Source of the DNA: an uncultured Candidatus Saccharibacteria bacterium | Lineage (GTDB): Bacteria > Patescibacteriota > Saccharimonadia > Saccharimonadales > Saccharimonadaceae | Assembly: GCA_946406315.1 (NCBI GenBank) | Contig: CAMJKD010000002.1 | Location: 62,933 to 126,932 of the forward strand | DNA length: 64,000 nucleotides | Reading direction: 5' to 3' | Shown: piece by piece, positions 1,621-61,229 of the stretch | Numbering within the stretch: position 1 is the first letter of the stretch | Layout: each line of letters begins with the position of its first letter | Translations under genes and position numbers: made by a program | The notes under the pieces: model-generated | The model's input: only the letters and a program-made list of their open reading frames with translations | Databases searched by the model: none | Told to the model about the DNA's origin: nothing

Positions 1621-1676
1621 AAAAAGGTGTTATAATATCTCGGCTACTTTAGTGTTCTTTGAAAAGAGGTGATATT

Positions 1677-1997: not shown

Positions 1998-2008
1998 AAC
2001 CTCAAATT

Positions 2009-2033
2009 AAAAAGTGCCCCGATTATTCGGGGC
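2009..2033. terminator. bidirectional intrinsic terminator between convergent genes
   Basis: Hairpin GCCCCGA-TTAT-TCGGGGC (2016-2033) is flanked by an A-run on the left, which reads as a T-run for hisS on the minus strand. A weaker T tract lies on the right. Confidence 0.5.
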
Positions 2034-2038
2034 AACTT

Positions 2039-3325
2039 TTATGGGTCGATAGTGTCGCCAGTTTTGAGATTTTTAGCTTTATATTGTCCACTAATTATTT
2101 CGTCATTACCAATTACGATGGCGTAGTCGGAAATTTTACTAGCACGATTAAACTTATCGCCAAGCTTGCGGTCGGATAAATCAACGTCGACTAGTTTCCC
2201 CCGTTCACGTAGTTGGTTGGCGAGTTCGAAGCTGGCTTCATATTCATTTGCGCTGATTGGTAAAATAATATAATCAATTGGCTGTTTAGCTTCGATATTC
2301 AATAGATTAAATTCACGCAAAATAAAGAATAGCCGCGTCAGACCAATAGAGCCGCCAACGCCTGGAAATTTTTGGTCAGTAAAGTTGCTAGCGAGATTTT
2401 CATAGCGACCGCCACCAGAAATACTGCCAATTTCACGATAATCCTCGAGTACGATTTCGTAAACGGTGCCAGTATAATAATCCAGTCCACGAATAATCAT
2501 AAAGTCAATAATGCAATTGTCGGTGCCTTTTTGGGTGAGAATATCAAAAACGGTTTTGAGCTCGGCGAGACCTTCGGCTACTGGTGAAATATCGCCCATA
2601 ATTTCTTTCAGCTTCGCCTCGACTTCTTCATAATTGCCGTGCGTAAACATGAACGCTGTAACTTTATTAACTTGCTCGTCGGTAAGCTTGAGTTTACGTA
2701 AAGCCTCTGTACTCTTGTCGGTCGAGACTTTTTCGGCGTGATCGATAACGTTAGAAATATCACTGGTTTTTTGGGATAAACCGAGCGATTCTAGGAAGCC
2801 AGCTAAAACCTTGCGGTTGCTAATGCGAATGAGCATTTTTGGGAGATTGAAGGTCTTTAATGCGTCGTGGATGCAGGCGATAACTTTTGCATCATAGGCG
2901 ATTGGGAGTTTTTCGCGACCGACAATATCGGCATCGCATTGATAGAATTCGCGGAAGCGACCACGTTGGGCGCGTTCGCCGCGGAAATTGCGATTAATTT
3001 GAGTGACTTGGAATGGAAAAGCTAAATCATTGTTGTGCTCGACGACATAACGCGCGAGTGGTACGGTGTGATCGAAACGTAAAGCCTGATCGGCAGAATC
3101 GGCAGATTCGGCAGTTTTACTGACCATGTAGATTTGCTTTTCCGTATCGCCGCCAGCTTTTGCAAATAATATATCTGTACGTTCGATGATTGGCGTTTCG
3201 ATACTTAAAAAGCCATAATGATGATATACGTCGCTAATATTTTGCTTGAGCTGGTCAAAAACTGCCTGCTCGGTTGGTAGTAGTTCTTGCATGCCAGAAA
3301 GTGGCGACGTATTAAATTTCTTCAT
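2039..3325 (-). CDS. hisS: histidine--tRNA ligase
   Basis: 428-aa ORF with class II aaRS / HisRS motifs: LPTEQAVF, FRGERAQRGRFREFYQCD, GGGRYENL and a GVGGSIGLTRL-type motif 3. Confidence 0.9.
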   Translation of the reverse strand: MKKFNTSPLSGMQELLPTEQAVFDQLKQNISDVYHHYGFLSIETPIIERTDILFAKAGGDTEKQIYMVSKTAESADSADQALRFDHTVPLARYVVEHNNDLAFPFQVTQINRNFRGERAQRGRFREFYQCDADIVGREKLPIAYDAKVIACIHDALKTFNLPKMLIRISNRKVLAGFLESLGLSQKTSDISNVIDHAEKVSTDKSTEALRKLKLTDEQVNKVTAFMFTHGNYEEVEAKLKEIMGDISPVAEGLAELKTVFDILTQKGTDNCIIDFMIIRGLDYYTGTVYEIVLEDYREIGSISGGGRYENLASNFTDQKFPGVGGSIGLTRLFFILREFNLLNIEAKQPIDYIILPISANEYEASFELANQLRERGKLVDVDLSDRKLGDKFNRASKISDYAIVIGNDEIISGQYKAKNLKTGDTIDP

Positions 3326-3340
3326 AGCTATATTATATAG

Positions 3341-4471
3341 CTATTCATCAATCTTATCTATAATCTCTTGTACCTTTGCGATTTCTTTAACGAATGATTC
3401 TTTTGAATCTGGAGTACTAGTAGAAATGATGATGTCGATTGTCGCGTCGTTGTCATAGTAGTAACGGAAGCCTGGCATATTGTTGTACGTGAAGCTGCCG
3501 ATTCGCGGTTCTTTTGATGCGTCAGTAATAGCTACGCCTTCGATGCGTTTGTGAAAGATGTAGATATTATTATTTGTTTTGTCACTCGTATATTCAATTT
3601 TTATATATTGATGATTGACTTCGGTAATGTTTTCGTAAGATTTTACGCGTTTTTTGTTTGGCAGTTTGAAGAAGGTTGCGACATCGTAAACGTAAGGTTT
3701 TTTGCTTTCGCCAGACATAGTCATGGCGGCTTTAACCATAATGTTGCGCATAGTAGCTTCTTTAATGTTGTCGGTGGCAGTATAGCTATTTACGGTAGTA
3801 TATTTGAAGAGAATGTTATCACTTTTGCTATAGAAGGAGTAAACTGTATGAGCTATTTTGTCTGATTCGACTTTCGATTGAGAAGTAAATAAAGTTTTGG
3901 CGCCTTCAATATAGTCGCTTTCGCAGTCTTTGGCTTTTGTGCACTCTTTATCTATGCTTTGGATGTCTTTGTTGGCGATTTCGATAGCGATTGGAATATC
4001 CTTAATATCTTCATGCGTAACAAAAACTTGTAGAAGCTCATTGGGAGTATTAGTAGAAACGCGTTTGAATTTAACTGTTGGTGAGGCTGAAAAAGTATAT
4101 TTCCCTTCCTCGTCAAGGGTAATACCATTGTTTAAATCGTCGGCGGTGTATTCTTTTTTGGCGAGACGATCTTTGGCGGCATAAATAGTTTCGACATGAG
4201 GTTCTTCGGTGGTAGGATTTTCGGATGTTTCAGAATCATTTTGTTTTGGCTGCTCTGAATTGTTGCTATTGCTAATAATGACCGCTGCGACAATGACTGC
4301 GATTGCAACTACGATAGCTACGATTGTGATAATAATTGGAAAAAGATTTCTCTTCTTTTTCTCTGGTTTTGGCGTAATCGAAGTAGGTTCTGGCGCTGGT
4401 TGTGTGTTATTTATAGATTCGTTGGGCATATTCGCCGTTGCTTCGCCAAAAGGAATTTGGTTTGGATCCAT
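3341..4471 (-). CDS. type II membrane-anchored hypothetical protein
   Basis: Pro-rich N-terminal tail, basic KKKR, a single TM segment (LFPIIITIVAIVVAIAVIVAAVII), then about 300 aa of extracytoplasmic domain. Confidence 0.5.
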   Translation of the reverse strand: MDPNQIPFGEATANMPNESINNTQPAPEPTSITPKPEKKKRNLFPIIITIVAIVVAIAVIVAAVIISNSNNSEQPKQNDSETSENPTTEEPHVETIYAAKDRLAKKEYTADDLNNGITLDEEGKYTFSASPTVKFKRVSTNTPNELLQVFVTHEDIKDIPIAIEIANKDIQSIDKECTKAKDCESDYIEGAKTLFTSQSKVESDKIAHTVYSFYSKSDNILFKYTTVNSYTATDNIKEATMRNIMVKAAMTMSGESKKPYVYDVATFFKLPNKKRVKSYENITEVNHQYIKIEYTSDKTNNNIYIFHKRIEGVAITDASKEPRIGSFTYNNMPGFRYYYDNDATIDIIISTSTPDSKESFVKEIAKVQEIIDKIDE

Positions 4472-4558: not shown

Positions 4559-4634
4559 GGCTCTGTAGCTCAGTTGGTAGAGCAGAGGCCTGAAGAGCCT
4601 TGTGTCGACGGTTCAAGTCCGCCCGGAGCCACCA
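4559..4634 (+). tRNA. tRNA-Phe (anticodon GAA), CCA encoded
   Basis: I folded a 76-nt cloverleaf by hand. Acceptor GGCTCTG/CGGAGCC; D arm GCTC..GAGC; anticodon stem GAGGC/GCCTT with loop CTGAAGA; variable region GTGTC; T arm GACGG-TTCAAGT-CCGCC with one A-C mismatch; discriminator A plus CCA. Confidence 0.9.
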
Positions 4635-18619: not shown

Positions 18620-18760
18620 AGATAGAAATCTCCTTTTGGTATTAGTTGGTAGCCAGAAAATGTTAAGGATTCGTCACCAATAATTACAAGAAAAAAAGAT
18701 TCTCCTCGGCGGCATGATTAAACCCGTTGGGTCGCCGCTGTCTTTGGTAACTTTGCATAT
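18620..18760 (-). promoter_or_regulatory. possible L10-leader-type attenuator in the rplJ 5' UTR
   Basis: The upstream region is long and untranslated. On the minus strand it contains the hairpin CGGCG...CGCCG followed by AGGAGAATCTTTTTTT, ahead of the rplJ RBS. I cannot run a covariance model. Confidence 0.3.
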
Positions 18761-18846
18761 TTTAACAAAATATTAATAGAAAATCAATAGGTGTGTTTTT
18801 CATAATGCTCATGTATAATTATTACAAATAGAGGTGAAGAAGAATA

Positions 18847-44605: not shown

Positions 44606-44923
44606 ATGATGGCGGCAATAGCTCTAATCACTAAAGGCGATGTACGATTTCTTGAAGAGGCGAGTTATAGAACTCCTGATATTTATTATCTAGGTGAGAA
44701 ATGGGAAATTAAATCACCGACTGGCAATAGTAGCCGTACGGTAGAAAATAACATTAGAAATGCCTTGCGTCAGTCGGATAATATAATAATCGATTTAAGA
44801 TGTATACATGTTAATGAGAGTAAATGTCTAAAAGAAGTTGAGAGACAGGTTAATTTATTCGGAAAGAGGGTGCGAAAAATGCTTGTTATAGTTAATGGCG
44901 ACAAGATAAAAGAAATAAAGTAA
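44606..44923 (+). CDS. small PD-(D/E)xK nuclease-like protein (orphan toxin-module-like)
   Basis: TPDIYYLGEKWEIKSP gives a PD...ExK arrangement in a 105-aa protein. It resembles the restriction-fold C-terminal toxin domains of polymorphic toxins. Confidence 0.35.
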   Translation: MMAAIALITKGDVRFLEEASYRTPDIYYLGEKWEIKSPTGNSSRTVENNIRNALRQSDNIIIDLRCIHVNESKCLKEVERQVNLFGKRVRKMLVIVNGDKIKEIK

Positions 44924-45184: not shown

Positions 45185-45736
45185 TTAGTTAATATACTTT
45201 GAGAATGTTCTTTTTAGTATTTGTTCCAGTTGTACGGTGAAGATAGCATGAGTACGTATGCTATCTTGGTGGGAGAAAGCGATATATGAAGTTCTTTTAA
45301 ATAATGAACTTGGGAAATCTCTGTAATTTTCGGTTAGTATGCCGACGTTATTATTTCTATACTGATATGCAGTAACTGCTAATTCGGTATCTGTAAAGCT
45401 TGCCCTTTTAGCTTCTTGACAATAAGCGATTCTGAATAGGGCATTTTCTTTGGAAGTAAATAGTACTTCGGTATTTTTTAAGACTTCTATACCTAGCTCA
45501 TCGAACATTTTAATGAAATCGTTATTTTGAACTAGATTTTTTGCACCTCTAATAAATTCATGATGCACAGACGGTGTTGTTATGAGGTCGCAATTCAAAT
45601 TGCTTAAGATATCAAGGAATTGAAGCATAGGATTATTGTGTTCTCGAGAAGATTCGATAAGCGCCGTATTATCTACGAGTATATAACCGCCAGAGAAATG
45701 AGAGATACTTTCTTTATCGTAAATCAGATTCTTCAT
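45185..45736 (-). CDS. PIN-domain ribonuclease (toxin-like)
   Basis: Four acidic PIN positions lie in canonical contexts: YILVDNTALI, TTPSVHHEF, FTDTELAV and ILTENYRDF. Confidence 0.7.
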   Translation of the reverse strand: MKNLIYDKESISHFSGGYILVDNTALIESSREHNNPMLQFLDILSNLNCDLITTPSVHHEFIRGAKNLVQNNDFIKMFDELGIEVLKNTEVLFTSKENALFRIAYCQEAKRASFTDTELAVTAYQYRNNNVGILTENYRDFPSSLFKRTSYIAFSHQDSIRTHAIFTVQLEQILKRTFSKYIN

Positions 45737-45881
45737 GGTCGCTATCTGGAACTGAATCTTTTATTTTATCAATTAAAACATTGACGGCATCAATATTGAT
45801 GCTTTTCTTGATCTTTTTCTTATTGCCAATTGTGGTATATGTGGGTTCAAGTATAGCCGTTTCGCTCATGTCTGTCTCCAT
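45714..45881 (-). CDS. putative cognate antitoxin (55 aa; absent from the ORF track)
   Basis: My own translation gives METDMSETAILEPTYTTIGNKKKIKKSINIDAVNVLIDKIKDSVPDSDHEESDLR. Its 3' end overlaps the PIN start by 23 nt. Confidence 0.35.
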   Translation of the reverse strand: METDMSETAILEPTYTTIGNKKKIKKSINIDAVNVLIDKIKDSVPDSDHEESDLR

Positions 45882-46706: not shown

Positions 46707-46871
46707 TTATTTAATTTTCTCTGCTTGTTTCAGGAGTTTTTCTTGCTCTTTGGCGGCTTTTTTTAGAGCGCGACGATAGATGCGATCTACATCTGGATCC
46801 GAGCTCCGAGTAACAAGATCTGAAAGGTCGTAATGTTTCTTTTTTCTCGTAAGTGTAATTGTATTATTCAT
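46707..46871 (-). CDS. 54-aa basic ORF coupled to the zeta-like kinase (absent from the ORF track)
   Basis: Its ATG overlaps the kinase stop codon (GATGAATAA). It encodes MNNTITLTRKKKHYDLSDLVTRSSDPDVDRIYRRALKKAAKEQEKLLKQAEKIK. Confidence 0.25.
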   Translation of the reverse strand: MNNTITLTRKKKHYDLSDLVTRSSDPDVDRIYRRALKKAAKEQEKLLKQAEKIK

Positions 46872-47439
46872 CACTCAGCATCCTTTCCAAGTCTTTAATA
46901 TTATATTCTAATTTTATATATTTGTCAAGTTCACAACTTTTGACGTCGATTATTCTTTTACCGACGTCATTATGCTTATCTTTTATTATTATATCAACTT
47001 TTATATTTTTATATTTTTTAAGACTTAATAAGTTATTTATTGTTAAGCCGTAGCATTTTATGAATCCATTTTTATCTATTGCTCGATGCTCGACTTTTTC
47101 GCGCGCTTTTGTGAATTTCCAGGCTCTTAAAGGGTCCTGTTTTATATATACTATTTTTATCGCATATCCCCTGTTAAATAAGGACTTTATACAATTCATC
47201 GATGTCTCATGCGAGAGTGTCCCATCCATAATGAATGGATAATATTCTTTTTTGCATTTTTGATAGATTGAATTTTGGAGTGAAGTTGCGCCCGATCTAA
47301 ACATATTAGCATGCTCTGGCTTATAAGTATCTATCATACTTGCTATCTCGTCCATATCAATACGAACTACTTTTATGTTTAATTCTTTTATAATAGTTTT
47401 CGTAAACTCAGTTTTCCCCGCTCCTGGCAGACCCGCCAT
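46864..47439 (-). CDS. zeta-toxin-family P-loop kinase (possibly 5'-truncated)
   Basis: GLPGAGKTEF Walker A, DGTLSHE, and RGYAIKIVYI...AREKVEHRAI. The frame stays open for 34 codons upstream (to 47541) without any start codon. Confidence 0.6.
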   Translation of the reverse strand: MAGLPGAGKTEFTKTIIKELNIKVVRIDMDEIASMIDTYKPEHANMFRSGATSLQNSIYQKCKKEYYPFIMDGTLSHETSMNCIKSLFNRGYAIKIVYIKQDPLRAWKFTKAREKVEHRAIDKNGFIKCYGLTINNLLSLKKYKNIKVDIIIKDKHNDVGKRIIDVKSCELDKYIKLEYNIKDLERMLSDE

Positions 47440-47724: not shown

Positions 47725-48411
47725 TCACTCTATGACAAGCTTAACTTCAACTGAGTATTTGTCGTCGTAGTTTTGAGGTTCTTCGATTACCTTTTTAACT
47801 AAGGCAGAGTATTTTGCGCCGTTGTCTAGATGGTCGGCGAGATACTGAGCGTAATAACGCGGTACGTAGCCGATGAAATAGTCTTTTGCGATTTTTTTGA
47901 AATGGATCTCAATAGCATTTGTGTCGAATGGGTTATTTTTATTGTGGATTAATTCTAATTTCGCGTTAGCAACAAGGTCGACGGCGCAGTTTTCTAGATC
48001 CTTCTCTCTATATCTCGTACCGGCAATGTTAAACTCGAGCCTTTCGGTATTCGTAATCGCGGGGACGAATTCGAAGTTATCTGTTGGTAGTCTTCCTTTT
48101 GTTGCAGCTAAGATATCGATGTCTGATGAGTTTGGTGAAAGGTTGAAAGTATTAATGATATCTAAAAAATCTATTCGCTCCCTGTCTGGGATTCTGCTCT
48201 TGATATTCTTAAATAATGTTTGGGACTTATATTTTTCGTATCTATTATCAAAACCAGGATATAACTGAAACCCATTTTTGGCGGCTTCGTCGACGTCATC
48301 AGAATATTCGAAAATGTAGCCATTGCTCGTCGCGGAGAGCTTCCCTACCTTATATCTACGTCTGCTACTATTTTTTGGATTTTTCCAAATTAGCCATAAT
48401 TCTTTATTCAT
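47725..48411 (-). CDS. HIRAN-domain protein with an uncharacterised N-terminal domain
   Basis: The C-terminal 100 aa (FNIAGTRYREKDLE...LELIHNKNNPFDTNAIEIHF...IGYVPRYYAQYLADHLDNG) match the HIRAN pattern. Confidence 0.7.
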   Translation of the reverse strand: MNKELWLIWKNPKNSSRRRYKVGKLSATSNGYIFEYSDDVDEAAKNGFQLYPGFDNRYEKYKSQTLFKNIKSRIPDRERIDFLDIINTFNLSPNSSDIDILAATKGRLPTDNFEFVPAITNTERLEFNIAGTRYREKDLENCAVDLVANAKLELIHNKNNPFDTNAIEIHFKKIAKDYFIGYVPRYYAQYLADHLDNGAKYSALVKKVIEEPQNYDDKYSVEVKLVIE

Positions 48412-49394: not shown

Positions 49395-51254
49395 TTATTG
49401 CGTGTCTTTCAGTTTTTTAATGATAGCTTTTCCGGTTTCGAATAAACGTTTATCATTTTTGTCTATTCCAATTTTTGAGACAGCTATTTTTATTCTGTCT
49501 AGTATTTTTCTGGCGTCCTCTTTAGTGTTTTCTTTAAGTATGCTATTTAACTGAGCCATAAAAGGAATATCATCCCGCATAGCCTCGATTCGGTCTTTTA
49601 TGTCGGGCACTATCTCGATTGCCTCTTTTTTAAGTTTTGCAAATGAAATGCAATCTTCAATTGTTGATCCGTCTGGTAGATTTGGATTTAGTTCTTTTAA
49701 AGTAAATACCTTATCTTCATATTCATTCGATATGGTCTTTATTTTATTCTTACTAGCTCTCCCCTGTGCGTCGTCGTCGGTAATAATTAGTGGCGTTATG
49801 TTATGTTTGATTGAAAAAGATGCCAGAGCTTGAATATTATTGCCCTCTCCATTAATGATCTTAGTTTCCGTCTCGAGTGCTACATCTATTGTCTTCAATA
49901 TGCCAGATATTAGTATTTTATCGCACTGCCCTTCTACTAAGATTTGATATTTAGATATAAAATCGCGTATTGGATCTATGCCGAACGCTCTATCTAGAAT
50001 TTCGTCACCTAAAATACTAGCCGTGTCAGCTACTGGTATTGCTTTAGTTATTCCGTTACTGTTTTTCTCTATGATAAAATGTCTCGTCTTCGATTTCTTA
50101 TCTATTAGAAAATTAGAGTGAGTAGAGATTAAGACATTATTATTTTCGCCTATTCTTAACAGTTCATTCAGAAGCCATCTTATACCTGATGGATGTAAAT
50201 GTATTTCTGGCTCATCTATGATTATGATAGCATTGCTAATTCGAGATTCGTGATTGTCAATTGAAATACTCAATAATAGGGAGACGAATGACTTGAAACC
50301 TTGGCTTCTTTCTTCCATAGAGTAATGCGTGTCTTCATTCTGTTCGTCTATTATGCTTATGGATGCAATTCCGGTAGATTCAATTTCTATAATTACTTTT
50401 GCATTAATTTCTTTCCATTTTTCTTTCAGAAAATCGCTTGCCACCTTTGACAATTGCTTAGCGAGGGTTCTTCTTGTAGGGCTGCCGGCGCAAATGCTGT
50501 CTATTTTGGCAAGTATACTATTCTTATCTTTTTCTCCATGAAGAGCAAATATGTTTTTTAATGGTATGCATTTTGATGGATTTTCTGCGAACTGCTTTAA
50601 ATTGATTTCCTCTGGAAGAAGATACTCTGGACTGGGGCTCCATGCTCCTCCTCTTTTTTGATTATCAATTATGGAGATAAACGTATCTTGTAATATCTTT
50701 TCCAGCGTAGCGGAGTCTAACTGTTTATATCCGGTAACGCCAAATGGTGCCAGCTCGTTTTCGTGCACTATCTCGTATTTATATTTCGGAATGTTGTCTG
50801 AATTCCTATTAGGGAATAACTGGGTAGTTTGGATGTAATAGTTGTCGGCTTTTACTTTGTTATGTTGTAGCAGCACTTCATGGTTGAATTTTACTTCGTT
50901 TTTATTGAGGGTATATATGTCGGTTAGTTTAGCTATACCTAGCTTTTTCGTTAATGATTCGGTCATATATAGACCTTTATTTTCAAATTCATCTTTGATG
51001 TTTAAGTTTCGGGTATTATATGTAAAAGAAATTACTATTTTATTTGGCTGTAATATCCTATTAGATATTTTTTCAAAATTATATGTTTCTTTATTATTGA
51101 AAATAGCAATATTAATCGCTTCGAGTATATTACTTTTTCCAGATTCATTTTTTCCCAATAAAGTAACAAGTTTACTTCCATTTATTTCTTTTATGGGAAT
51201 AGAGATATCCTCGATCGACTTAAAACCTTTTATATTAATACCCTCTAGCTCCAT
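49395..51254 (-). CDS. OLD-family nuclease (ABC-type ATPase + Toprim), stand-alone
   Basis: Walker A GKNESGKS, Walker B/D-loop IIIIDEPEIHLHP, and Toprim motifs ILVEGQCD and IITDDDAQG. No adjacent helicase. Confidence 0.8.
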   Translation of the reverse strand: MELEGINIKGFKSIEDISIPIKEINGSKLVTLLGKNESGKSNILEAINIAIFNNKETYNFEKISNRILQPNKIVISFTYNTRNLNIKDEFENKGLYMTESLTKKLGIAKLTDIYTLNKNEVKFNHEVLLQHNKVKADNYYIQTTQLFPNRNSDNIPKYKYEIVHENELAPFGVTGYKQLDSATLEKILQDTFISIIDNQKRGGAWSPSPEYLLPEEINLKQFAENPSKCIPLKNIFALHGEKDKNSILAKIDSICAGSPTRRTLAKQLSKVASDFLKEKWKEINAKVIIEIESTGIASISIIDEQNEDTHYSMEERSQGFKSFVSLLLSISIDNHESRISNAIIIIDEPEIHLHPSGIRWLLNELLRIGENNNVLISTHSNFLIDKKSKTRHFIIEKNSNGITKAIPVADTASILGDEILDRAFGIDPIRDFISKYQILVEGQCDKILISGILKTIDVALETETKIINGEGNNIQALASFSIKHNITPLIITDDDAQGRASKNKIKTISNEYEDKVFTLKELNPNLPDGSTIEDCISFAKLKKEAIEIVPDIKDRIEAMRDDIPFMAQLNSILKENTKEDARKILDRIKIAVSKIGIDKNDKRLFETGKAIIKKLKDTQ

Positions 51255-51719
51255 AGTCCAATTATACCAAATAGCCCAGTAGGCTCCTCGCCTATTTATC
51301 TATCTAGTCAGTACTAGATAGGGTGCTTTGTATCGATGGATGGTAATTTATATTACGCGATATCTCTATTACATTATCGTACAAATATCTTTATTGCCCT
51401 ACGTATAGAAATAGGCCTCCTCTATAATCGCATAATTGCTGTTAGTCTTGTCGTTCTAGAAGCTCTAGTGAAAAATGACTAATTTATTGTGAGCAATTTA
51501 TTCTGCTGAGTCGACAAAATGGTATATGTTACTTCCCCTGTCGCTTAGACGATGATCTATAGGTCTTCGCGGAACTTGCTATTCATTAGTGTGGAAAATA
51601 GTTAATCATAGAATAGCGACATGTTGTGAATATTCTTAATGCTAGAGATTGTAAGGTGTCTATGCTTGCATTTCATTGAGGAGCAATTTATGTCTGTTAT
51701 AAGATACGGAATTAAAAAT

Positions 51720-52470
51720 ATGAACGAGAGTCCATTAGTTAGTGTTATTATTCCCGTTTATAACGTGGAAGCTTATTTGAAGCGTTGTCTTGATTCTGTC
51801 GTAAATCAGACTTATAGGAATTTGCAGATTATTTTAGTAGACGACGGTTCGCCGGATAATTGCGGAGTAATTTGCGATCAGTATGCCGCTAAAGATAAGA
51901 GAATAACGGTAATTCATCAAGAGAATGGCGGGCTGTCAGTGGCGAGGAATGCGGACATTAAGTTAATCAAAGGCGACTATACGACTTTTATCGATAGTGA
52001 TGACTGAATTCATTTGAGTATGATTAAAACGATGGTAGAGGTGACGCTAAGGAAAAGCGTTGATGTCGTAGCTTGTAATCATCTTTCAATACGGAACGAT
52101 GATGTCGTGGCGCAAATTGACAATAAAGACAATAAGGTTACTATTACTCAAGTTGATGATTACCTAAAACAATATTTTAGAGTGCCGGATGAGAAGATAT
52201 TATATTATGCTTGGGAAAAACTATATAAAAGTACTCTGATTATATATGATATGTATCCAGTTGGCTTAACTCATGAGGATATTCTGGGAATATATAGGGC
52301 AATTAAGAATATTCGAAGGGCTGCAGAAATTGATTTTGTCTATTATTACTATTATTAGAATCGAAACGGCATTACTCGTACTAAATTTTCGGAAAGGAAT
52401 TTTGACTATTTTCCTGTTTTTGACATTTTGATTTCCGAGTGCGAGGGAGCGTGAGAATTATGCTAGATAT
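51720..52470 (+). pseudogene. family-2 glycosyltransferase pseudogene (in-frame TGA and TAG, 3' end lost)
   Basis: VSVIIPVYNVEAYLKRCLDSVVNQTY...LVDDGSPDNCG...DSDD, then TGA at 52005 where GT2 enzymes usually have Trp. TAG follows at 52356, and the frame continues as NRNGITRTKFSERNFDYF. Confidence 0.7.
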
Positions 52471-52557: not shown

Positions 52558-53125
52558 CGAAAGATGCGAAAGAAAAAGGCATCCAGATTGTGTACTTGCC
52601 TGGAAATGGCGAGATTGTTCTGGACGACTTCGTGGTGGATGACATTACTGTCGAAAAAGCCGTGGATCCTGACAATCGTTTTTATCAGCAGCCGGCTGAC
52701 GATGGATACTTTCTGGAGTTCGGAGTGAACTACGTGAAGTATGCGCATGTGCTGCCGGATGACGCGTTGCTGTTAGTACGCATCTGCTGGACTTGCCGGA
52801 AGAATCTATCGATTTACTGCTGAAATCACTGGGAGCATTCGACAAGAAGTTCTCCATGGGCTTGGTGCACTATCCGCTCGCGATTGCTCCAGTTGGTGGC
52901 GCGTTCGATTTCTGGGCACTGAACAAGTCCGACGCGTCGCGTACGGAAGCGTTGGGCAAGGTTCTGGCGAAGCTGCGGCTGTGCGATGGTGCAATGGTCT
53001 ACTTTGGTCGCATTCACCTTGGCGCCAATGACGCGCATGGACTGCTATTCGTTCAGTATGACGTTTCTGACGAGCGAATTCGGCGGTTGCGTCTGGATGA
53101 AGCCCGGTACTGTTATGAAACTGTA
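52558..53125 (+). other. high-GC foreign fragment carrying a frameshifted gene remnant
   Basis: I counted 58% GC at 52861-52920, against about 32% in neighbouring island DNA. The ORFs at 52590-52823 and 52793 onward are two frames of one broken gene. Confidence 0.5.
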
Positions 53126-53230
53126 GCCTTAATAATACTCTCCAGTCTACAAAAAGCCCTTCAATCGGAGAGCTTGTTTTTTTCGGTTTTTAAATCTCTT
53201 ACCATAGGTGCGTTCAGAGCGGTATCGAAT

Positions 53231-54250
53231 ATGATATATAATGGTGATATGAAATATTCCCATTCTATGATTGATAAAGTTGGCGAAATTGTGCGACATG
53301 AACGGATGGACGATGAATACAACGATGCGCTTAATATTTTGAATGAGTGGCGCGAAGCGCATGGGCGAGTATTGGATGATTATTTTGATAAATGCGTTAG
53401 ATTTGCGCGTAAAATGGATAAAGAAATAATTGTTGCTCAGAGACTTAAGCGTCTACCTACGATAATAGACAAGTTAAACCGTCTTAATGATTTGGCGTTA
53501 TCTAGGATGCAAGATATAGCTGGCGTACGAATAATTGTTAAAGATATGGAGCAATTACGTATTGTAGATAGAAAGATTAGAAGGTGGAAGTATTTAAAAC
53601 GTATAAAAAATTACATAGATAGCCCTAAAGCTAGTGGCTATCGCGGTGTTCACTATATTTTCAAGATTGATGATTTCTGGATAGAAATTCAATTAAGAAC
53701 GCAACTTCAACATTTATGGGCAACATCAGTTGAAACTGTAGATGTTTTCCGTGGTACGAATATGAAAACACGCGGAGATAATACGTATTGGAATGATTTC
53801 TTTTTGGCTGTTTCGAATGTGTTTGCTTTTGCCGAAGAATCTTCTACGCTGTCCGATTATTCTGAATTAGGACTCCTTGGAACTATTTCGAGGATTCATG
53901 AATTTCAAGATAAATACAACATCTTGAAATCACTTGAAGCTATGGCTTTTACGGATATAGTTTCTAGGGATAACCGTTTTAAGGAGGCTTATTATATATT
54001 GATGGACTTAGATTTCTCTAAAAAAGAGTGCTCGGTTTTCTGTGTTAAAGAAGAAGACTTTGAATCGGCGATGGCGGAATATATTAAATATGAGTCCGAT
54101 AAAACTAGAAAACATAGTGCCGTATTTGTAGCAGTAAGTGATTTTAATAAATTAAAAGACGCATATCCAAATTATTTTGTAGATTTAAATAAGTTTTCTA
54201 GTATGATTAAGTTTATGCTTGAAAATTCTAAGAATGAGGTTAAAATATAA
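53231..54250 (+). CDS. stand-alone RelA/SpoT-homologue synthetase-fold protein with a C-terminal extension (toxSAS/CapRel-like)
   Basis: Complete synthetase motif set: RLKRLPTIIDKL, DIAGVRIIV, GYRGVHYIF and EIQLRTQLQHLWA. I chose the start at ATG 53231, where GC drops. A C-terminal domain of about 130 aa follows. Confidence 0.7.
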   Translation: MIYNGDMKYSHSMIDKVGEIVRHERMDDEYNDALNILNEWREAHGRVLDDYFDKCVRFARKMDKEIIVAQRLKRLPTIIDKLNRLNDLALSRMQDIAGVRIIVKDMEQLRIVDRKIRRWKYLKRIKNYIDSPKASGYRGVHYIFKIDDFWIEIQLRTQLQHLWATSVETVDVFRGTNMKTRGDNTYWNDFFLAVSNVFAFAEESSTLSDYSELGLLGTISRIHEFQDKYNILKSLEAMAFTDIVSRDNRFKEAYYILMDLDFSKKECSVFCVKEEDFESAMAEYIKYESDKTRKHSAVFVAVSDFNKLKDAYPNYFVDLNKFSSMIKFMLENSKNEVKI

Positions 54251-55975: not shown

Positions 55976-56497
55976 ATGACGATGACGATAACAATAAGTA
56001 AAAAGGTCATTAATGGAAAAAATGAGTTCATCCAAGGTAAAGCTGAGGTAATAGATTCTCTATCTAATATACGGAAAGCTTCAAGTGACAGCTATAACAT
56101 GACGCAGGAGAGCTTAACTAATAGTTTATTTACGGCTGCAACTGCATATATTGCAATTATTTTAGCGTTTGCTAATAATATGCAAAATACCGTAAAGGAT
56201 TACTCATGGATTATAGTAGCTAGCATATTGGCTTTCTCTGTTTCTTTAATTCCATGGGCGGTTGAAAAAATAATTGCCAGCATAGCGCATGGGAAAAATA
56301 TAGCGATTAGTTCGAAATTGTCAAATATCGCAATCAACGATGTATGGGACAAAAAAGAGCTTGTTGTATTGGATAAGATTGCCGCAAAGCTATTGCATGG
56401 CGGAAAGACTAGTATTATTCCAATTTTACTTCAAATAGCACTTTTTTCCATCGGTGTTATATTTGCCGTAATAGCTATAATGATTGCCTTATTGTAA
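55976..56497 (+). CDS. membrane protein of unknown function
   Basis: 173 aa with 3-4 TM segments, convergent with the 848-aa gene. Confidence 0.45.
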   Translation: MTMTITISKKVINGKNEFIQGKAEVIDSLSNIRKASSDSYNMTQESLTNSLFTAATAYIAIILAFANNMQNTVKDYSWIIVASILAFSVSLIPWAVEKIIASIAHGKNIAISSKLSNIAINDVWDKKELVVLDKIAAKLLHGGKTSIIPILLQIALFSIGVIFAVIAIMIALL

Positions 56498-56940: not shown

Positions 56941-59487
56941 CTAATCGTATGTGACGGATCTCTTCTTAAGATGCTCTGTCATTCTATTGATATCGTTTTC
57001 AAATTCTTTTGCTATATTTCTATATAATCTCGCTGTGTTTTGGTATCCTATCGCGTCAATTTCATTAGCGGCCTGATTCCAGATTTTAATTAGGTCTTTT
57101 TCCTCTTCAAATTTTTCATCTACCGAAATAACACCCCTTGAATTTGTTACGCCGATAGCAAAACCGTTACGATATTCCGCGTTTTCTTCTTTATTGAGCA
57201 ATTCTAGATAATATTTTTCACTTTGAGGTTCGTGGCAGTTGTTTGATGCCAAATTCTGCCCAATTGCATTTTGAACTGCGACCAATTTATTTTCGTCGTT
57301 TTTGTAATGAGACTCTACGCTATTAATCCACATTTTTAGTCTATTTTTTGTAACTTTATTATACTTATTAATACCTGGACGTATGTGTAGATTATGGGTT
57401 ATTTTATAATATTGGAAGGAATTATTGTTTTTGGTATATAGCAGGTCGTACATAGCATAAAATACCTCTGGAGCTTTGCCTAGTAATGATATTAAACTAC
57501 TAGGTGTATTTTTTTTATCCCATTCATTAAATAGTGATATGAATTTTAACTCTACCATGGCTAGCTGATATTCTGGGCATTTTTTACTTTTTAGGTAATT
57601 AATAATATCTAATATTTCGTAACCATGCCTATAGTCAACATATTCGCCGTTTTTTACTGAGTAATTAAGTAACGTAGTGATTATTAAGTCTGTTTTTATA
57701 TCAATACTTCTAAGTATGGCAATTGATAGTATCTCTACGGATATTGAACTCCTTTTTACCTTGTTTAGCATGTGTACTGAATATTCTATCTCTTTCGCAT
57801 CCCAATTGGCTTGCGGATAAATATTTGCTTTTTTCCAATACAGTCTTTCTATATGGTCTTTCCTTGCTGTATGCCAAACAGACATATCTGGCCTCGCGCA
57901 TAATAAAACTTTAAGTTTTGTTGCCTTATCTTGCTGATTGTATGAAATGGTTTTTAGTCCTTGGTCTATCGTCTCTTTTTCGCAGATTTGATATGTTAGC
58001 CCTTCTGCAAATCTTTTTTCTTTTTTATTGGTAGAATTTAGCAATTGATATAGTCTCGGTAGAAATTCATTTCTAATTTTAGAATTTCCTACGGCATATG
58101 AAACTTTATCTGTATACTTTGACAGATGAACCAGCGACATTATTTTATCGATTCCTCCGTTTTCGTAAATGTCCATAATAGCTTCTACTAATTTGTTGTG
58201 TATTCTGTCAATTTGTTCCGTATATCTTTCTTTTTTGTTTGTTAACTCATAATCCGGTTGGTCAAAAAGAATTTTTGCCCTAAAGAAGACATCTTTTGGT
58301 TCATATATGTCGCATAGCTCGTCTATTAAGTTGATTGTTGGGGTATTTTTTGTTTTATTTTTGGCTATTATCAAATGTTGCCATATGCTATTTTTATTAT
58401 CTTCCGGCTGGTCCGTTAAGCTTTTTGCTAAAAATGCTTCACGAACATTGACTAGATATCTTTCATTGATGTATGGGATTTCGTTTAATAAAATGAATAT
58501 ATTCCTACGATTACTTGTTGCCTTAATGAATGCTTGCGCATATAAGTCAAAATGATTCCAACAGTTTTTGTTGATTCCGTTTTGATTTAGAGATATAGCG
58601 TTTTTATATAATGCACCATCTTTTAGCCATGTTGGTCTCATTAAGTCGAACCATGACCTATAGTTGTTAGGAAGCAATCTTTTATATATATATAGTTTAT
58701 CTTGATTGTTAGATATCGTTTTAAGTATTGCGTTTGGGATGTCTTTTTCTGGAAAATTCGTTTGAGGTCGATAGGGGTTAATAATGCTTACGATTGTGTT
58801 TAGGCTTTTATTCTCTTTTGTATCTTTTTCTTTTTTCGATAGTTTTTGTAGCAGTTGTATGCATTGAGTGAAAAACTCTTCGCTATATGCCAGAATTTGC
58901 ATTGAGAGCCGTATTTCGTACAACGAATCGTCTGTGAACGAGAACACAGTTTTGGTTTGTTGATTTAGTATCGAAATAAGCTCATCATTGTCTATCACTT
59001 TTTTGATCGTATCAATGTATAATTGCGAGTTGATTTGTGCGAGCGTATGTAGGTTTTTGCGATTTGTATACCAAAATTTCCAATTATTTAAATTAGCGTT
59101 ATATAGGTTTTTTAGCGATTCGGTAATGTTTTTCTGGATGTATGATGTGCTACAATTCCTAAACTGCTCCTGATTGTTATATAGTACGGCTAACGATTCC
59201 GTAACTGTTTTTCTTAGATTTTCAGAATATATAGGCTCGATGTTGTTGAGGAGCCTATGCGCTTCTCTATTTTTTGGTTCATATTCGAGACTAGGGTCTG
59301 AATATCCGATCACTTTTATTGCCTTGGCGACGAAAGCGTCTATTATGGTATCTGTAATGGAGTCTCGATATTCTAATATATAGCTACTATGGTGCGGTAC
59401 ATAATAGTCTTTATTTAGTTTATTTATACCGTTACTCGCGGTTATTCTATCGAGTTTTTTCTTTGCGTTAGTATTGTCTATTTCCAT
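56941..59487 (-). CDS. 848-aa protein of unknown function (predicted mostly alpha-helical), second gene of a two-gene operon
   Basis: Uninterrupted 2.5-kb ORF in 32%-GC DNA. Its start lies 3 nt after the stop codon of the 312-aa ORF. I could not find Walker A/B, DExH, HNH or GIY motifs. Confidence 0.6.
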   Translation of the reverse strand: MEIDNTNAKKKLDRITASNGINKLNKDYYVPHHSSYILEYRDSITDTIIDAFVAKAIKVIGYSDPSLEYEPKNREAHRLLNNIEPIYSENLRKTVTESLAVLYNNQEQFRNCSTSYIQKNITESLKNLYNANLNNWKFWYTNRKNLHTLAQINSQLYIDTIKKVIDNDELISILNQQTKTVFSFTDDSLYEIRLSMQILAYSEEFFTQCIQLLQKLSKKEKDTKENKSLNTIVSIINPYRPQTNFPEKDIPNAILKTISNNQDKLYIYKRLLPNNYRSWFDLMRPTWLKDGALYKNAISLNQNGINKNCWNHFDLYAQAFIKATSNRRNIFILLNEIPYINERYLVNVREAFLAKSLTDQPEDNKNSIWQHLIIAKNKTKNTPTINLIDELCDIYEPKDVFFRAKILFDQPDYELTNKKERYTEQIDRIHNKLVEAIMDIYENGGIDKIMSLVHLSKYTDKVSYAVGNSKIRNEFLPRLYQLLNSTNKKEKRFAEGLTYQICEKETIDQGLKTISYNQQDKATKLKVLLCARPDMSVWHTARKDHIERLYWKKANIYPQANWDAKEIEYSVHMLNKVKRSSISVEILSIAILRSIDIKTDLIITTLLNYSVKNGEYVDYRHGYEILDIINYLKSKKCPEYQLAMVELKFISLFNEWDKKNTPSSLISLLGKAPEVFYAMYDLLYTKNNNSFQYYKITHNLHIRPGINKYNKVTKNRLKMWINSVESHYKNDENKLVAVQNAIGQNLASNNCHEPQSEKYYLELLNKEENAEYRNGFAIGVTNSRGVISVDEKFEEEKDLIKIWNQAANEIDAIGYQNTARLYRNIAKEFENDINRMTEHLKKRSVTYD

Positions 59488-59490
59488 ATA

Positions 59491-60429
59491 TTATCCTATC
59501 TCTTGATCTAGCTCATCGAATAATTCAAGATCGCCTTTTTTACTTGAATCGATTCCACCTAATAGGATCGTCGCTAAATTTGTGGGCTCTATTGCTAGTT
59601 GTTTTTGCTTCAAGACTGCGCTGTTTACTAAAAATTTCTCGCATATTTCCAATAGCTGTAATGGCGGCTCGTTTATATCTATGCTGTTTGATATGTTGTC
59701 GCTATTTGTAATTATGTCCTTAAGTAGTATCCATATACTATGTGGGTCTATTCCATCTCTGCAGTTATCTCTAATTATGCTATATATTAGTGAGAGTATT
59801 CCCGGATATCCTTTTTTGTCTATAGTTTGTCGTATATCCATTGATAAAATATCGAAATTTCTTAATAATATATACACATCATCATCTGTTGCGTCTATTT
59901 TTTTCTTTTTTAGGGCTTCTTTGATTGTTTTTAGTGCTGATTCTTCGGCACTATCCCTATTCCCCAGCAGGAATGCTTCTTTGTAGCTGTGTGTGTTTTT
60001 TGCGATGTTGGCTATTCTTATTAAAGAGCTCTTTTTAGCGTCGATTGATCGAGTCGCCAATAAAACTATATCGTTTTCTTGATTAAAAAAATCTCCATTT
60101 ATATCTACATACGCGTTTTTGATAACATCATTAAATTGAGAACTCTTTACCTCAATCTCCTCCTTAATATTAACGAGTATTTTAATGTCGCGCGAACCAA
60201 CGTTTGCATACGCAACTAAGTCGTCAGTATTATATCTTGGGCCATATTCGCCATCATGTTGCTTATATTGAAAAACTAATTTATTTATTTTTGTATTTGG
60301 GTCAATAAAAGGTGGAGTTTTTCCTAGTATCATTATTAATAAAAAATATGCTTGTATTATGTGCTCAAAATCTATTCCTGGAATGGCGGTCATTGATGCT
60401 GGATATTGATTTGCTGGATGCCGACTCAT
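59491..60429 (-). CDS. 312-aa protein of unknown function with a possible N-terminal PD-(D/E)xK (Mrr-cat/DUF4297-like) pattern
   Basis: PGIDFEHIIQAYFLLIMILG ... TDDLVAYANVGSRDIKILVNIKEE resembles the GxxFE...D-D...[IV]x[IV]K nuclease pattern. The remainder appears helical. There is no SD sequence upstream. Confidence 0.55.
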   Translation of the reverse strand: MSRHPANQYPASMTAIPGIDFEHIIQAYFLLIMILGKTPPFIDPNTKINKLVFQYKQHDGEYGPRYNTDDLVAYANVGSRDIKILVNIKEEIEVKSSQFNDVIKNAYVDINGDFFNQENDIVLLATRSIDAKKSSLIRIANIAKNTHSYKEAFLLGNRDSAEESALKTIKEALKKKKIDATDDDVYILLRNFDILSMDIRQTIDKKGYPGILSLIYSIIRDNCRDGIDPHSIWILLKDIITNSDNISNSIDINEPPLQLLEICEKFLVNSAVLKQKQLAIEPTNLATILLGGIDSSKKGDLELFDELDQEIG

Positions 60430-60435
60430 ATATTC

Positions 60436-60464
60436 AGTATAAACTAACGATTGAGTTAATGTAA
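60436..60464 (-). promoter_or_regulatory. candidate promoter that would give a leaderless transcript for the 312-aa ORF
   Basis: On the minus strand: TTACAT, 17 nt, TATACT, 6 nt, ATG. No RBS lies between them. Confidence 0.25.
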
Positions 60465-60487
60465 TGAGATGAAAAAATCAGGACAGT

Positions 60488-60676
60488 ATTACTTGCACTT
60501 AATTTTCGGAAAGGAATTTTGATTATTTTCCTGTTTTTGACATTTTGATTTCCGAGTGCGAGGGGGTGTGAGAATTATGCTAGATATAATAAAGTTTTGC
60601 ATGCTTAAGGTGTCCTATTAGGAATGACAAGAGAGGGTGTTGCCAGGTCGGACTAATATTTTTGTCTGCCGCTTCA
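60488..60676 (+). repeat. direct repeat copy B (about 189 bp, GT2-derived)
   Basis: Roughly 90% identical by eye to 52371-52557. Confidence 0.8.
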
Positions 60677-60949
60677 GCAATAGTACTGAGGGATTAGCGA
60701 AGTTCGATGTTACTGATGTCCTGAGCGTATAGGCGCAGGCGATTTCGGCGCCTTTGTCGACAAAGCATCCTTAGTGTCGGTTACGGTGTCTAGCGTTTTT
60801 TGAGATTTTTGGCAAGGCCTATATCTCAACCACATCACCGCCCAAATAGTCTTCCATTACTTTGCAGATGGCGATGGATTCTTCTTCGGTGACGTAGCTA
60901 TAATTAGTTTTGCCGTCTTGAGAGCCCATAGTAAAGGCGACTAATTCAT

Positions 60950-61169
60950 TTTAGTGGATGACGGTTCGCCGGATAATTGTGGCGCAATTTGCAATCGGTA
61001 TGCTGCTAAAAATAAAGAATTCGCTCAATTCGATAAGGTCTTATTCGCTTATACCACCTTATTAAGGATGGCTAAATATGGCGTCGCTGGGTCTAAAAGA
61101 TACAGCAAGCAAAAAAGCCGAGTTATCAAGAATAGTGAAAGATGGAGAGAAAATCTTCAAAAAATATAA
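60950..61169 (+). pseudogene. chimeric GT2 remnant
   Basis: VDDGSPDNCGAICNRYAAKNK is homologous, at nucleotide level too, to 51838-51905. It then jumps to an unrelated tail, and the upstream GT2 start is missing. Confidence 0.5.
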
Positions 61170-61229
61170 CCATACCGTGAAACGGGCCATCTTTAGGTCA
61201 ATAGTGAAAATATATTATAGAGTATAGAT

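Follow-up and report, generated by a model that had tools for sequence, protein, structure and literature searches.

A nuclease-like protein and an alpha-solenoid encoded side by side in a Saccharibacteria genomic island: a probable split member of a large, unnamed family of defense-type proteins

We analyzed a stretch of 64,000 nucleotides (nt), here called the window, from the genome of an uncultured Candidatus Saccharibacteria bacterium (GenBank assembly GCA_946406315.1, contig CAMJKD010000002.1, positions 62,933 to 126,932). Near one end it carries two adjoining genes, coding for proteins of 312 and 848 amino acids (aa), that form the subject of this work. Judging by its alignment with relatives of every architecture, the pair is a conserved split form of a protein that is predominantly a single chain. 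Our reading, which we hold with moderate confidence, is that it belongs to a large unnamed family of "effector plus alpha-solenoid" proteins, free of any nucleoside triphosphatase (NTPase), that would act against phages or mobile DNA by the mechanism proposed below. That the family is a defense or conflict system of some kind we consider likely; the specific activation steps are put forward with less assurance.

A preliminary description of this DNA, made from the letters alone, had proposed a nuclease-like effector with a large helical sensor or scaffold as an undescribed conflict system. The fold and motif of the small protein, the exchange of heads among the relatives and the embedding of some of these in restriction-modification (R-M) and bacteriophage exclusion (BREX) operons all support that proposal.

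A conserved split form of a single-chain protein

Both open reading frames (ORFs) are intact and lie in one reading frame on the minus strand (59491..60429 and 56941..59487), with a gap of 3 nt and the junction GGA-TAA-TAT-ATG; lengths and gap agree with the preliminary description. Given that 312 and 848 aa add up to 1,160 aa, near the length of the single-chain relatives, the pair is a two-piece version of a protein that usually comes as one. The alignment of the concatenated pair with every architecture located the cut. The consensus L..A.L.G.WD.....D..(I/L) corresponds in the window to LATILLGGIDSSKKGDLELFDEL, residues 285 to 307 of the small protein. This adaptor element stands directly before the solenoid in fusions with nuclease, SIR2, TIR, GT4 and phosphoesterase heads and is N-terminal in the large proteins of 928 to 932 aa that have a separate HetE-N gene upstream, while free-standing modules of 850 to 870 aa are without it. 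As every architecture has this element at the beginning of its constant module, the two genes of the window are divided within that module and not in front of it, and we infer that the element is a docking piece joining the two subunits.

The stop-start junction was kept in five further loci (cited by our own identifiers, as are others below), with a stop codon, 3 to 4 nt and an ATG in L003, L095, L096 and L097 and a TAATG overlap in L004. A clean cut at the same point was also found, independently, in two Nitrospirae genomes (L078 and L079), with a nuclease of 321 to 324 aa and a large protein of 863 aa, and another clean split in a Thiodiazotropha genome (L088), with a different head of 215 aa. 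In these three loci the effector and solenoid ORFs overlap by 11 nt (L078, 3813-7368; L079, 9986-13532; L088, 9337-12553; our own ORF calls, with start codons as called). The split pair is therefore a conserved arrangement, but the system is not intrinsically one of two genes, given that the family is predominantly single-chain.

To both genes selection has been much the same. The ratio of nonsynonymous to synonymous substitution rates (dN/dS) between the window and L003 (73 to 74% aa identity) was 0.106 for the small gene and 0.112 for the large one; the corresponding values were 0.112 and 0.108 against L097 (63 to 66% identity) and 0.232 and 0.252 against L095 (94 to 96%). Both ORFs were still intact in the L004 homologue, which is only 31 to 35% identical to the window. 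On these comparisons the split form is functional, both of its halves being kept under purifying selection.

Two other explanations of the gene arrangement were tried and rejected. Conserved read-through of the stop codon fails because a shared frame is confined to the window, L003 and L095, the frames of the two ORFs being different in L004, L096 and L097. Tandem paralogues beside a core gene were dismissed as well, the extra matches being split forms or frameshift fragments. Among the relatives there are also short copies (L023, L041, L067, L070 and L071) whose cuts fall at random; these are evidently pseudogenes with frameshifts.

A widespread family with interchangeable heads

The preliminary description had found no recognizable family for either protein. 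This stands for the curated collections, in which neither window protein had a significant match (Pfam, 2025; NCBIfam 20.0, June 2026; PADLOC-DB 2.0.0; RefSeq annotation was that of September 2026), but the proteins are not orphans. A word-indexed search of 5.8 billion proteins returned only four clusters for each window protein, those of the small protein being free-standing homologues, and its repetition with a 35-sequence profile added only two new proteins. Searching exhaustively with HMMER, by means of a profile built from four large-protein sequences, we retrieved 4,305 clusters (at 50% identity) at an E value of ≤1e-3 and 1,888 at ≤1e-30. Scanning species-representative genomes with two peptide patterns, on the basis of eight of the more closely related fused sequences, gave at least 600 stretches, at least 588 of them confirmed, and the family is present in at least 588 such genomes, from Escherichia coli to methanogens. 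Among complete E. coli genomes, a fused member was found in 8 of 5,426.

Most of the best 150 of the 4,305 relatives were proteins of 1,165 to 1,280 aa with the module at the C terminus. In about 70 of these 150 the profile of the small protein matched, over its full length, the N-terminal ca. 310 aa (E values down to 1.6e-31), and about 35 were free-standing modules. The same 150 proteins displayed at least 15 N-terminal classes, at least 10 of which, beyond the heads named here, are unannotated. The named heads on the same module included SIR2 (of the pAgo-associated type in PADLOC; E value, 1e-101), a ThsB-like TIR, a GT4-conflict domain (E value, 4.7e-80), a calcineurin-like phosphoesterase (Metallophos, a class of 22 among the best 150) and an XRE-type helix-turn-helix (HTH_3). 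Such a combination, in which many toxic heads alternate on a module that stays constant, is what marks immune sensor-effector proteins.

In Photobacterium and in P2-like prophages, the head is encoded in trans, as a separate HetE-N protein of 106 to 120 aa (PF20701; E values, 1e-38 to 1e-40) upstream of a module of 928 to 932 aa; HetE-N is an uncharacterized effector domain according to Kaur et al. 2021 (PMC8195603). On the Photobacterium damselae contig (L001, 4891-8003), this pair adjoins RnlAB and a DUF4238 gene, and the protein is named by NCBI as plasmid borne. In the five P2-like prophage contigs (L006 to L010, ca. 745-3905), it lies beside ogr/delta and, in all five, ca. 1.4 kb from the contig end.

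Proteins of 1,350 to 1,370 aa on Shewanella, Rhizobium and Cupriavidus replicons (L092, 152-4264; L093, 3615-7679; L100, 1624-5676) combine an XRE helix-turn-helix (HTH) with ca. 400 unannotated residues and the solenoid. RefSeq labels HTH-headed relatives "HigA family antitoxin" or "HTH transcriptional regulator" and others "hypothetical protein"; the HTH and HigA names probably mislabel what are large multidomain proteins.

The large protein as an alpha-solenoid

The 848-aa protein had been described as all-helical and devoid of NTPase motifs, and both statements were confirmed. Its AlphaFold2 (AF2) model, built from a 35-sequence alignment (predicted local distance difference test [pLDDT], 88.1; predicted template modeling score, 0.66), comprised ca. 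49 helices and essentially no strands; no Walker A motif was found in either window protein, nor helicase motifs in the large one. According to this model, the protein is an NTPase-free, HEAT-like alpha-solenoid. A Foldseek search against the PDB retrieved generic HEAT/ARM solenoids (CAND1, karyopherins, FANCI and SF3B1) with template modeling (TM) scores of ca. 0.2, no defense protein being among the top 50 matches, and no match below an E value of 1e-3 was obtained from BFVD. Searches of PDB sequences with profiles of 4, 5 or 50 sequences, the last two being profiles of the small protein, likewise produced no relevant match. In PHROGs, the only match for the pair was one function-unknown family, phrog_18693, to the large protein (E value, 9e-25), with the 1,258-position profile matched only from position 434 on.

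Conservation along the solenoid was uneven. In the 35-member alignment, column entropy was 2.3 to 2.6 bits over residues 321 to 640, versus 1.8 to 2.1 bits over residues 41 to 280 and 641 to 848. The higher entropy of the central part is compatible with a diversifying binding surface, and we mark this part as a candidate ligand-binding region in Table 1.

The small protein as a probable nuclease head

The nuclease-like character claimed for the 312-aa protein in the preliminary description was supported at the level of both fold and motif. In an alignment of 74 homologues (5 split and 69 fused), residues Q54, D69, D70, K89 and D109 were invariant, and position 87 was Q in 88% of the sequences, N in the window clade and T in homologue P0008. 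Secondary structure in the AF2 model (helix 21-37, strands 47-54, 69-77 and 80-89, helix 97-110 and strand 121-126) fits the order of a restriction endonuclease-like core, as far as a low-confidence model can tell. With this model, Foldseek ranks 1 to 26 were occupied by Cap4-type defense nucleases, namely, Lamassu LmuA, Cap4 of the cyclic oligonucleotide-based antiphage signaling system (CBASS), the N-terminal domain of Avs3 (8dgc) and Hachiman HamA (E values, 1.8e-4 to 1e-2; probability, 0.8 to 1.0; TM scores, 0.30 to 0.34), the best of them being LmuA (9nxx_D; E value, 1.8e-4). Thus, where Pfam and PADLOC gave no significant match for either protein, Foldseek searches with the monomer models pointed to a nuclease-type fold for the small one and to a generic solenoid for the large one. 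The small protein probably carries an E...DD...(Q/N)xK version of the PD-(D/E)xK site in a nuclease that is Cap4/LmuA-like at the fold level.

A link to a predicted effector came from a different direction. In a search of plasmids, the nuclease domain alone matched the N terminus of a 1,500-aa "tetratricopeptide repeat protein" of Burkholderia cepacia. By hhalign, the profile of the small protein matched the restriction endonuclease (REase) head of that protein, WP_124919377.1, with a probability of 94.6% (E value, 7e-8), and the profile of the fused relatives matched the N-terminal domain of the same protein with 99.3% (E value, 1.3e-20). WP_124919377.1 is tabulated by Kaur et al. 2021 (PMC8195603) as REase+TPR+GreAB-C+PIN, so that the small protein is homologous to an effector already predicted in print.

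Proposed mode of action

We propose that the 848-aa solenoid would serve as the constant sensor or scaffold, onto which the 312-aa Cap4/LmuA-like DNase would dock via its C-terminal L..LLG.(W/I)D.....D element; the helix of residues 285 to 307 would be expected to pack on the earliest helices of the solenoid (residues 5 to 60). At rest, the solenoid may hold the nuclease inactive. The trigger would be a ligand derived from the invader, most likely a phage protein, or else the loss of a guarded host complex, and either could shift the conformation or oligomeric state of the solenoid. The nuclease domains might then form an active oligomer, degrade DNA and bring the infection to a halt, with the cell itself probably being lost. 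Autoinhibition, ligand sensing, oligomerization, DNA as the target and the abortive outcome are all modeled on DSR2, Avs3/Avs7, Lamassu LmuA and Cap4.

Genomic context and alternative explanations

The neighborhoods of 80 family loci, from Proteobacteria, Bacillota, Planctomycetota, Cyanobacteria, Chloroflexota, Bacteroidota, the candidate phyla radiation and methanogenic/methanotrophic archaea, were compared by means of our own ORF calls clustered with blastp. No universal partner gene was found among them. The recurrent families were HsdS (11 of the 80 loci, always immediately upstream), HsdM (14 loci, upstream at positions -2 to -10 in 12 and downstream in 2), HsdR (12, downstream), a PglX-like methyltransferase (5, immediately upstream), BrxL (4, downstream), RhuM (6) and Schlafen (5), these last two at various positions, as well as ABC-F. 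All the R-M and BREX neighbors were co-oriented with the family gene, and 22 of the 80 loci, a count made without a formal null model, lay inside type I R-M (17) or BREX (5) operons.

PrrC and PARIS act as guards. The guard logic of PARIS is summarized in PMC12839542. A comparable role, in which the solenoid monitors an R-M or BREX complex, or anti-restriction proteins, and frees the nuclease upon inhibition, would account for the fused relatives that sit exactly between hsdS and hsdR, the classical prrC position (11 loci), and for those between pglX and brxL (5 loci). However, 58 of the 80 loci have no adjacent R-M or BREX genes, and neither do the window, L003 to L005 or L095 to L097. The family also occurs as a lone gene in prophages and plasmids, and unrelated stand-alone defense genes are commonly embedded in R-M loci. 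We regard a restriction guard as an unlikely explanation.

Several members are carried by mobile elements. On a conjugative Shewanella plasmid, the family gene follows an abortive infection (Abi) protein and a superinfection-exclusion protein; in E. coli A28, where it codes for the fused homologue WP_044867624.1 (NZ_CP028747.1, 3805625-3809167), it lies past the tail-fiber genes of a lambdoid prophage, at whose end it takes the moron position; and the copies in P2-like prophages adjoin ogr. Such carriers would also suit selfish addiction or competition between elements, with a nuclease toxin and a solenoid inhibitor that stabilize an island or exclude rival elements. The same may be said of the TA-like genes of the window island (zeta toxin and RelA_SpoT), of the Panacea and Fic genes that flank the pair in L003 and of the relatives annotated as "HigA family antitoxin" on account of an N-terminal XRE HTH. 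In most members, though, the supposed toxin and inhibitor are one polypeptide, which is incompatible with addiction by differential stability, the conserved solenoid of 850 aa is far bigger than any known antitoxin, and the effector heads cover the same range as in immune sensors. We consider addiction unlikely, slightly more so than the restriction guard.

In the window and in L003, L004, L005 and L096, the pair lies at the 3' edge of a co-directional polysaccharide cluster, only 108 nt past the last biosynthetic gene in L096. This placement might suggest an accessory function in an operon for exopolysaccharide, capsule or teichoic acid-type polymers (eps/cps), e.g., regulation or quality control. 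Nevertheless, the content of the cluster differs each time while the pair stays constant, as expected at the boundary of a variable region. Moreover, 800 nt of decayed DNA part the polysaccharide genes from the pair in the window, and in L095 the pair is near an epimerase and a G5 protein, with no polysaccharide cluster directly upstream. Polysaccharide clusters are absent from the recurrent neighbors of the family as a whole, and it is hard to see what a DNase-like head would do in glycan synthesis. Such a function is very improbable, and we take the setting of the window clade to reflect a long stay, in one lineage, at the edge of a variable region.

That the pair is a decaying pseudogene, a single-chain gene broken by a nonsense mutation, is hardly credible: the window, L003 and L095 ORFs are indeed in frame and parted only by a stop and one codon, and broken copies do exist elsewhere in the family, but both halves are intact and under equal purifying selection (dN/dS of ca. 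0.11) down to 63% identity, three unrelated lineages share the domain boundary at which the cut falls, instead of being cut at random, and free-standing modules are common among the relatives.

Strength and significance of the defense reading

Several points weigh against the reading of the pair as a nuclease effector with a solenoid sensor in a defense family. No experimental result was found for any member of the family. The association with R-M and BREX comes from fused relatives that are ca. 20% identical to the window protein, the neighbor counts rest on ORFs from our own script, with the statistical limit given above, and the window clade itself adjoins polysaccharide genes and not R-M genes. 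The fold matches of the solenoid are generic and no result points to a ligand, so that its sensor role is drawn from the analogies just described, and the HTH-fused forms, which couple the module to a DNA-binding head, sit less naturally with a pure "sensor plus toxin." As for the nuclease, the AF2 model of the small protein is poor (pLDDT, 55.5) and its TM scores to Cap4-type nucleases are just 0.30 to 0.34; the Pfam models of DUF4297 and Mrr, with which its beginning had been compared, do not match (no Pfam match at an E value of ≤1); hmmsearch of PDB sequences with 5- and 50-sequence profiles found no nuclease; and at the acidic or amide position of the (D/E/Q)xK motif the window clade has N and P0008 has T.

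On the other side, the pair itself recurs in five further split loci, although most relatives are fused, and the exchange of heads on a constant module extends across the family. A bolder version of the defense reading would have the 848-aa protein represent a major unnamed class of bacterial and archaeal immune receptors, an NTP-independent chassis with at least 4,305 clusters, at least 588 genomes and at least 15 heads, in single-chain and two-subunit forms with a detachable adaptor, that senses phage proteins or the integrity of R-M and BREX systems. This we offer tentatively, as a possibility somewhat on the doubtful side. The solenoid would be a new chassis, with a notable split form, for a sensor-effector logic of defense that is known.

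If the family is a defense system, it would be among the larger ones without a name, with thousands of clusters in most bacterial phyla and some archaea, and one that Pfam, NCBIfam and PADLOC 2.0.0 do not see. It would add, alongside DSR2, an NTPase-free chassis to the pattern-recognition-type sensors. It would also mean that a defined adaptor element can serve as the point at which a single-chain sensor is divided, a finding of use in engineering and in explaining how effectors are exchanged. Given that fused members occur in E. coli, the hypothesis is directly testable in a tractable host.

The locus and the surrounding island

The coordinates of the pair, its predicted functional sites and other features of the window are collected in Table 1. 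The guanine-plus-cytosine (GC) content was 0.32 to 0.35 over 57 to 60 kb, in keeping with the 32% counted at 57001-57060 in the preliminary description; its comparison value of 50% for a core gene proved too high for the window at large, where 1 to 44 kb had 0.42 to 0.46 (about 44%). The low-GC zone extends from ca. 44 to 64 kb, to the end of the window, and takes in the flanking polysaccharide genes; therefore, the AT richness belongs to the island at large and is not peculiar to the pair.

With regard to expression, no Shine-Dalgarno (SD) sequence was found upstream of the small-gene ATG (60429), and a TATACT does end 6 nt before it, as previously noted. The leaderless transcript deduced from these two features has no statistical support, as promoter-like matches in the region are at the level expected from shuffled sequence (22 seen versus 21.3 expected). 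The large gene has an AGGA 6 nt 5' of its ATG.

Table 1. Positions in the window of the gene pair, of its predicted sites and of neighboring features
Feature	Position	Strand	Remarks
Small subunit gene	59491..60429	-	312 aa, ATG start; predicted PD-(D/E)xK head, helical middle, C-terminal adaptor element
Nuclease core, residues ca. 14-200	59830..60390	-	Alpha-beta-beta-beta-alpha-beta order (model)
Codon E22	60364..60366	-	Predicted catalytic acid on helix 1; E in 95% of 74 aligned, invariant in 50-sequence alignment
Codons D69-D70	60220..60225	-	Putative "PD" equivalent, start of strand 2; invariant, 74/74
Codons N87-I88-K89	60163..60171	-	Putative "(D/E/Q)xK" equivalent, end of strand 3; K89 invariant
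Adaptor element, L285-L307	59509..59577	-	LATILLGGIDSSKKGDLELFDEL; first conserved element of the constant module, here on the effector subunit
Gene junction TAA-TAT-ATG	59485..59493	-	Small-gene stop, one codon, large-gene start
Large subunit gene	56941..59487	-	848 aa, ATG start; predicted NTPase-free HEAT/ARM-like alpha-solenoid, constant module
Central, more variable part of the solenoid, residues 321-640	57568..58527	-	Candidate ligand-binding region
Promoter-like match ATTACA, 18 nt, TATACT	60436..60465	-	9/12 matches; ends 6 nt before the small-gene ATG; putative function
Spacer between the pair and the tagD-like gene (which ends at 61230)	60430..61229	.	800 nt, noncoding or decayed
Fragment of family-2 glycosyltransferase (GT2) gene, in the spacer	60954..61169	+	Truncated
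GT2 gene fragment	51639..52007	+	Truncated
ORF downstream of the pair	55976..56497		No Pfam match
RelA_SpoT protein	52793..54250	+	Pfam; 485 aa, RelA_SpoT domain at residues 216-311, E value 6.7e-18
OLD-family protein	49395..51254	-	Pfam; 619 aa, single gene; AAA_15/AAA_21 ATPase plus OLD-like TOPRIM
HIRAN protein	47725..48411		Pfam
Zeta toxin	46864..47439		Pfam
Presumed PIN toxin-antitoxin (TA) pair	45185..45736 and 45714..45881	-	183-aa ORF and overlapping upstream 55-aa ORF
ORF with CdiA C-terminal toxin domain	44606..44923	+	105 aa, PF18451, E value 8e-15; without CdiA body
Ribosomal protein L10 leader	18683..18765	-	Rfam RF00557
tRNA	4559..4631	+	Rfam; the one tRNA

Most of the neighbors named in the preliminary description were recognized by Pfam, including the RelA_SpoT, OLD, HIRAN and zeta proteins and the insertion sequences, the latter as IS1595 and IS200 fragments. 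The PIN TA pair remained at the level of motifs: the 183-aa ORF has the PIN-like YILVDNTALIE ... TENYRDF, and no Pfam or PDB sequence match was obtained for the pair. The RelA_SpoT protein is a candidate fused toxic small alarmone synthetase (toxSAS) of CapRel-like logic with a different domain order. It has ca. 215 unannotated N-terminal residues; since the listed ORF starts with TTG and its exact sequence is not in the protein collection, its true start is probably different. The OLD-family protein is the only member of its 90% cluster, and the CdiA_C-like ORF may be an orphan toxin module or a remnant.

Higher in the window and on the same strand as the pair lie genes for a TagD-like cytidylyltransferase, a CDP-glycerol glycerophosphotransferase and a Wzx-type flippase; the tagD-like gene, next upstream of the pair, codes for a CTP_transf_like cytidylyltransferase. 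The spacer in between contains the peptide DDGSPDNCGAICNRYA, which, reading the sequence by eye, we take to be a GT2 N-terminal motif. The GT2 fragments suggest that defense and mobile genes inserted into and eroded a former polysaccharide cluster, spanning ca. 39 to 64 kb. Taken by themselves, the L10 leader, the tRNA and the TagD/TagF-like genes of the window, with the LytR-CpsA-Psr and G5 genes on the related contigs L003 and L005, would suggest a host among the Bacillota; the assembly record places the DNA in Saccharibacteria.

Comparison with known systems

We found no description of the solenoid module in the literature, although it might be covered, under another name, in recent work or in a later version of DefenseFinder or PADLOC. 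Among genes embedded in R-M loci, PrrC consists of an ABC-type ATPase plus an anticodon nuclease. Fused relatives of the pair share the same hsdM-hsdS-X-hsdR slot with PrrC-type genes, but there is no sequence or fold relation, and the window pair is not beside R-M genes. In Hachiman, HamB is a superfamily 2 helicase, while the large window protein has neither helicase motifs nor a Pfam match, and HamA is only a distant fold match of the small one. CBASS Cap4 has a SAVED/CARF sensor domain and a CD-NTase gene; the small protein, by contrast, had no SAVED match in Pfam or PADLOC, and no CD-NTase was detected among the scanned window neighbors of the pair.

Lamassu is closer in that it is a multigene system with a Cap4-type effector, LmuA, held by a large partner and activated by oligomerization. 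However, the partner there is LmuB, an SMC/Rad50-like ATPase, with or without LmuC, whereas the window partner has no Walker A motif, ATPase head or long coiled coil, and the PADLOC models of LmuA and LmuB do not match the window proteins. In Avs3 and Avs7, a Cap4-type nuclease is activated by tetramerization after the binding of a phage protein (PMC13581612). Both share with the window pair the combination of a Cap4-like PD-(D/E)xK head and a large helical-repeat sensor, but they have an NTPase of the STAND (signal transduction ATPases with numerous domains) class, in contrast to window proteins without Walker A and a large-protein model without an alpha/beta domain. The same source equates PD-lambda-4 with Avs8, a STAND NTPase with a helical-repeat sensor (PMC13581612). 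Six of the 35 family members gave weak matches to PADLOC PD-Lambda-4_A (best E value, 2.7e-4), which we interpret as repeat-level similarity; an identity of the module with PD-Lambda-4/Avs8 was rejected on account of the weakness of these matches and of the module having no NTPase.

The NTPase-free solenoid sensor that comes closest in principle is DSR2. According to two reports (PMC11850899 and PMC11263360), it is a single chain without NTPase, in which an alpha-solenoid binds the phage tail tube and switches an N-terminal effector on. SIR2 heads also occur among the relatives of the window module. Nevertheless, the PADLOC DSR models miss the window proteins, the 35 modules and the SIR2-fused and nuclease-fused relatives, no DSR chain was among the top 50 Foldseek matches, and the window system uses a nuclease and is split in two genes.

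The closest described system is TPR-GreA/B-C-PIN (TPR, tetratricopeptide repeat), a counter-invader system predicted by Kaur, Iyer, Burroughs and Aravind in 2021 (eLife 10:e70394; PMC8195603). Like the window family, it is mostly encoded by a stand-alone gene, in which the C-terminal region is constant and made of helical repeats and the N-terminal effector slot varies, being filled by REase, SIR2, TIR, GT4 and, rarely, HetE-N heads, with the HetE-N gene in trans. The two also share an REase family, since the head of WP_124919377.1 is homologous to the 312-aa protein. Their constant regions, however, are not detectably related. The hhalign probability of the solenoid profile against WP_124919377.1 was 0.06%, BLASTP of a solenoid-family protein against it gave no match, and the fused profile aligned over the REase only. 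TPR-GreA/B-C-PIN is predicted to have FKBP-like GreA/B-C and PIN domains, while the 848-aa model is purely helical without either, and the constant region is ca. 1,090 aa long as opposed to ca. 880 aa in the window family. None of our accessions of the window family appears in the table of Kaur et al., and Thiorhodococcus drewsii, which has a family member (L014), is listed in their supplement under other systems only. Identity of the two families was thus rejected for the constant region and accepted for the REase head. A Kaur-type gene of B. cepacia ATCC 25416 (L099, 4893-9395 and 9948 onward) is clustered with a PDDEXK nuclease, an FRG-domain protein, a SIR2-family protein and a phage integrase, in what looks like a plasmid-borne defense island. 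The pool of effectors that the window family has in common with TPR-GreA/B-C-PIN (the REase family, HetE-N, GT4, SIR2 and TIR) shows that such cassettes move between unrelated chassis.

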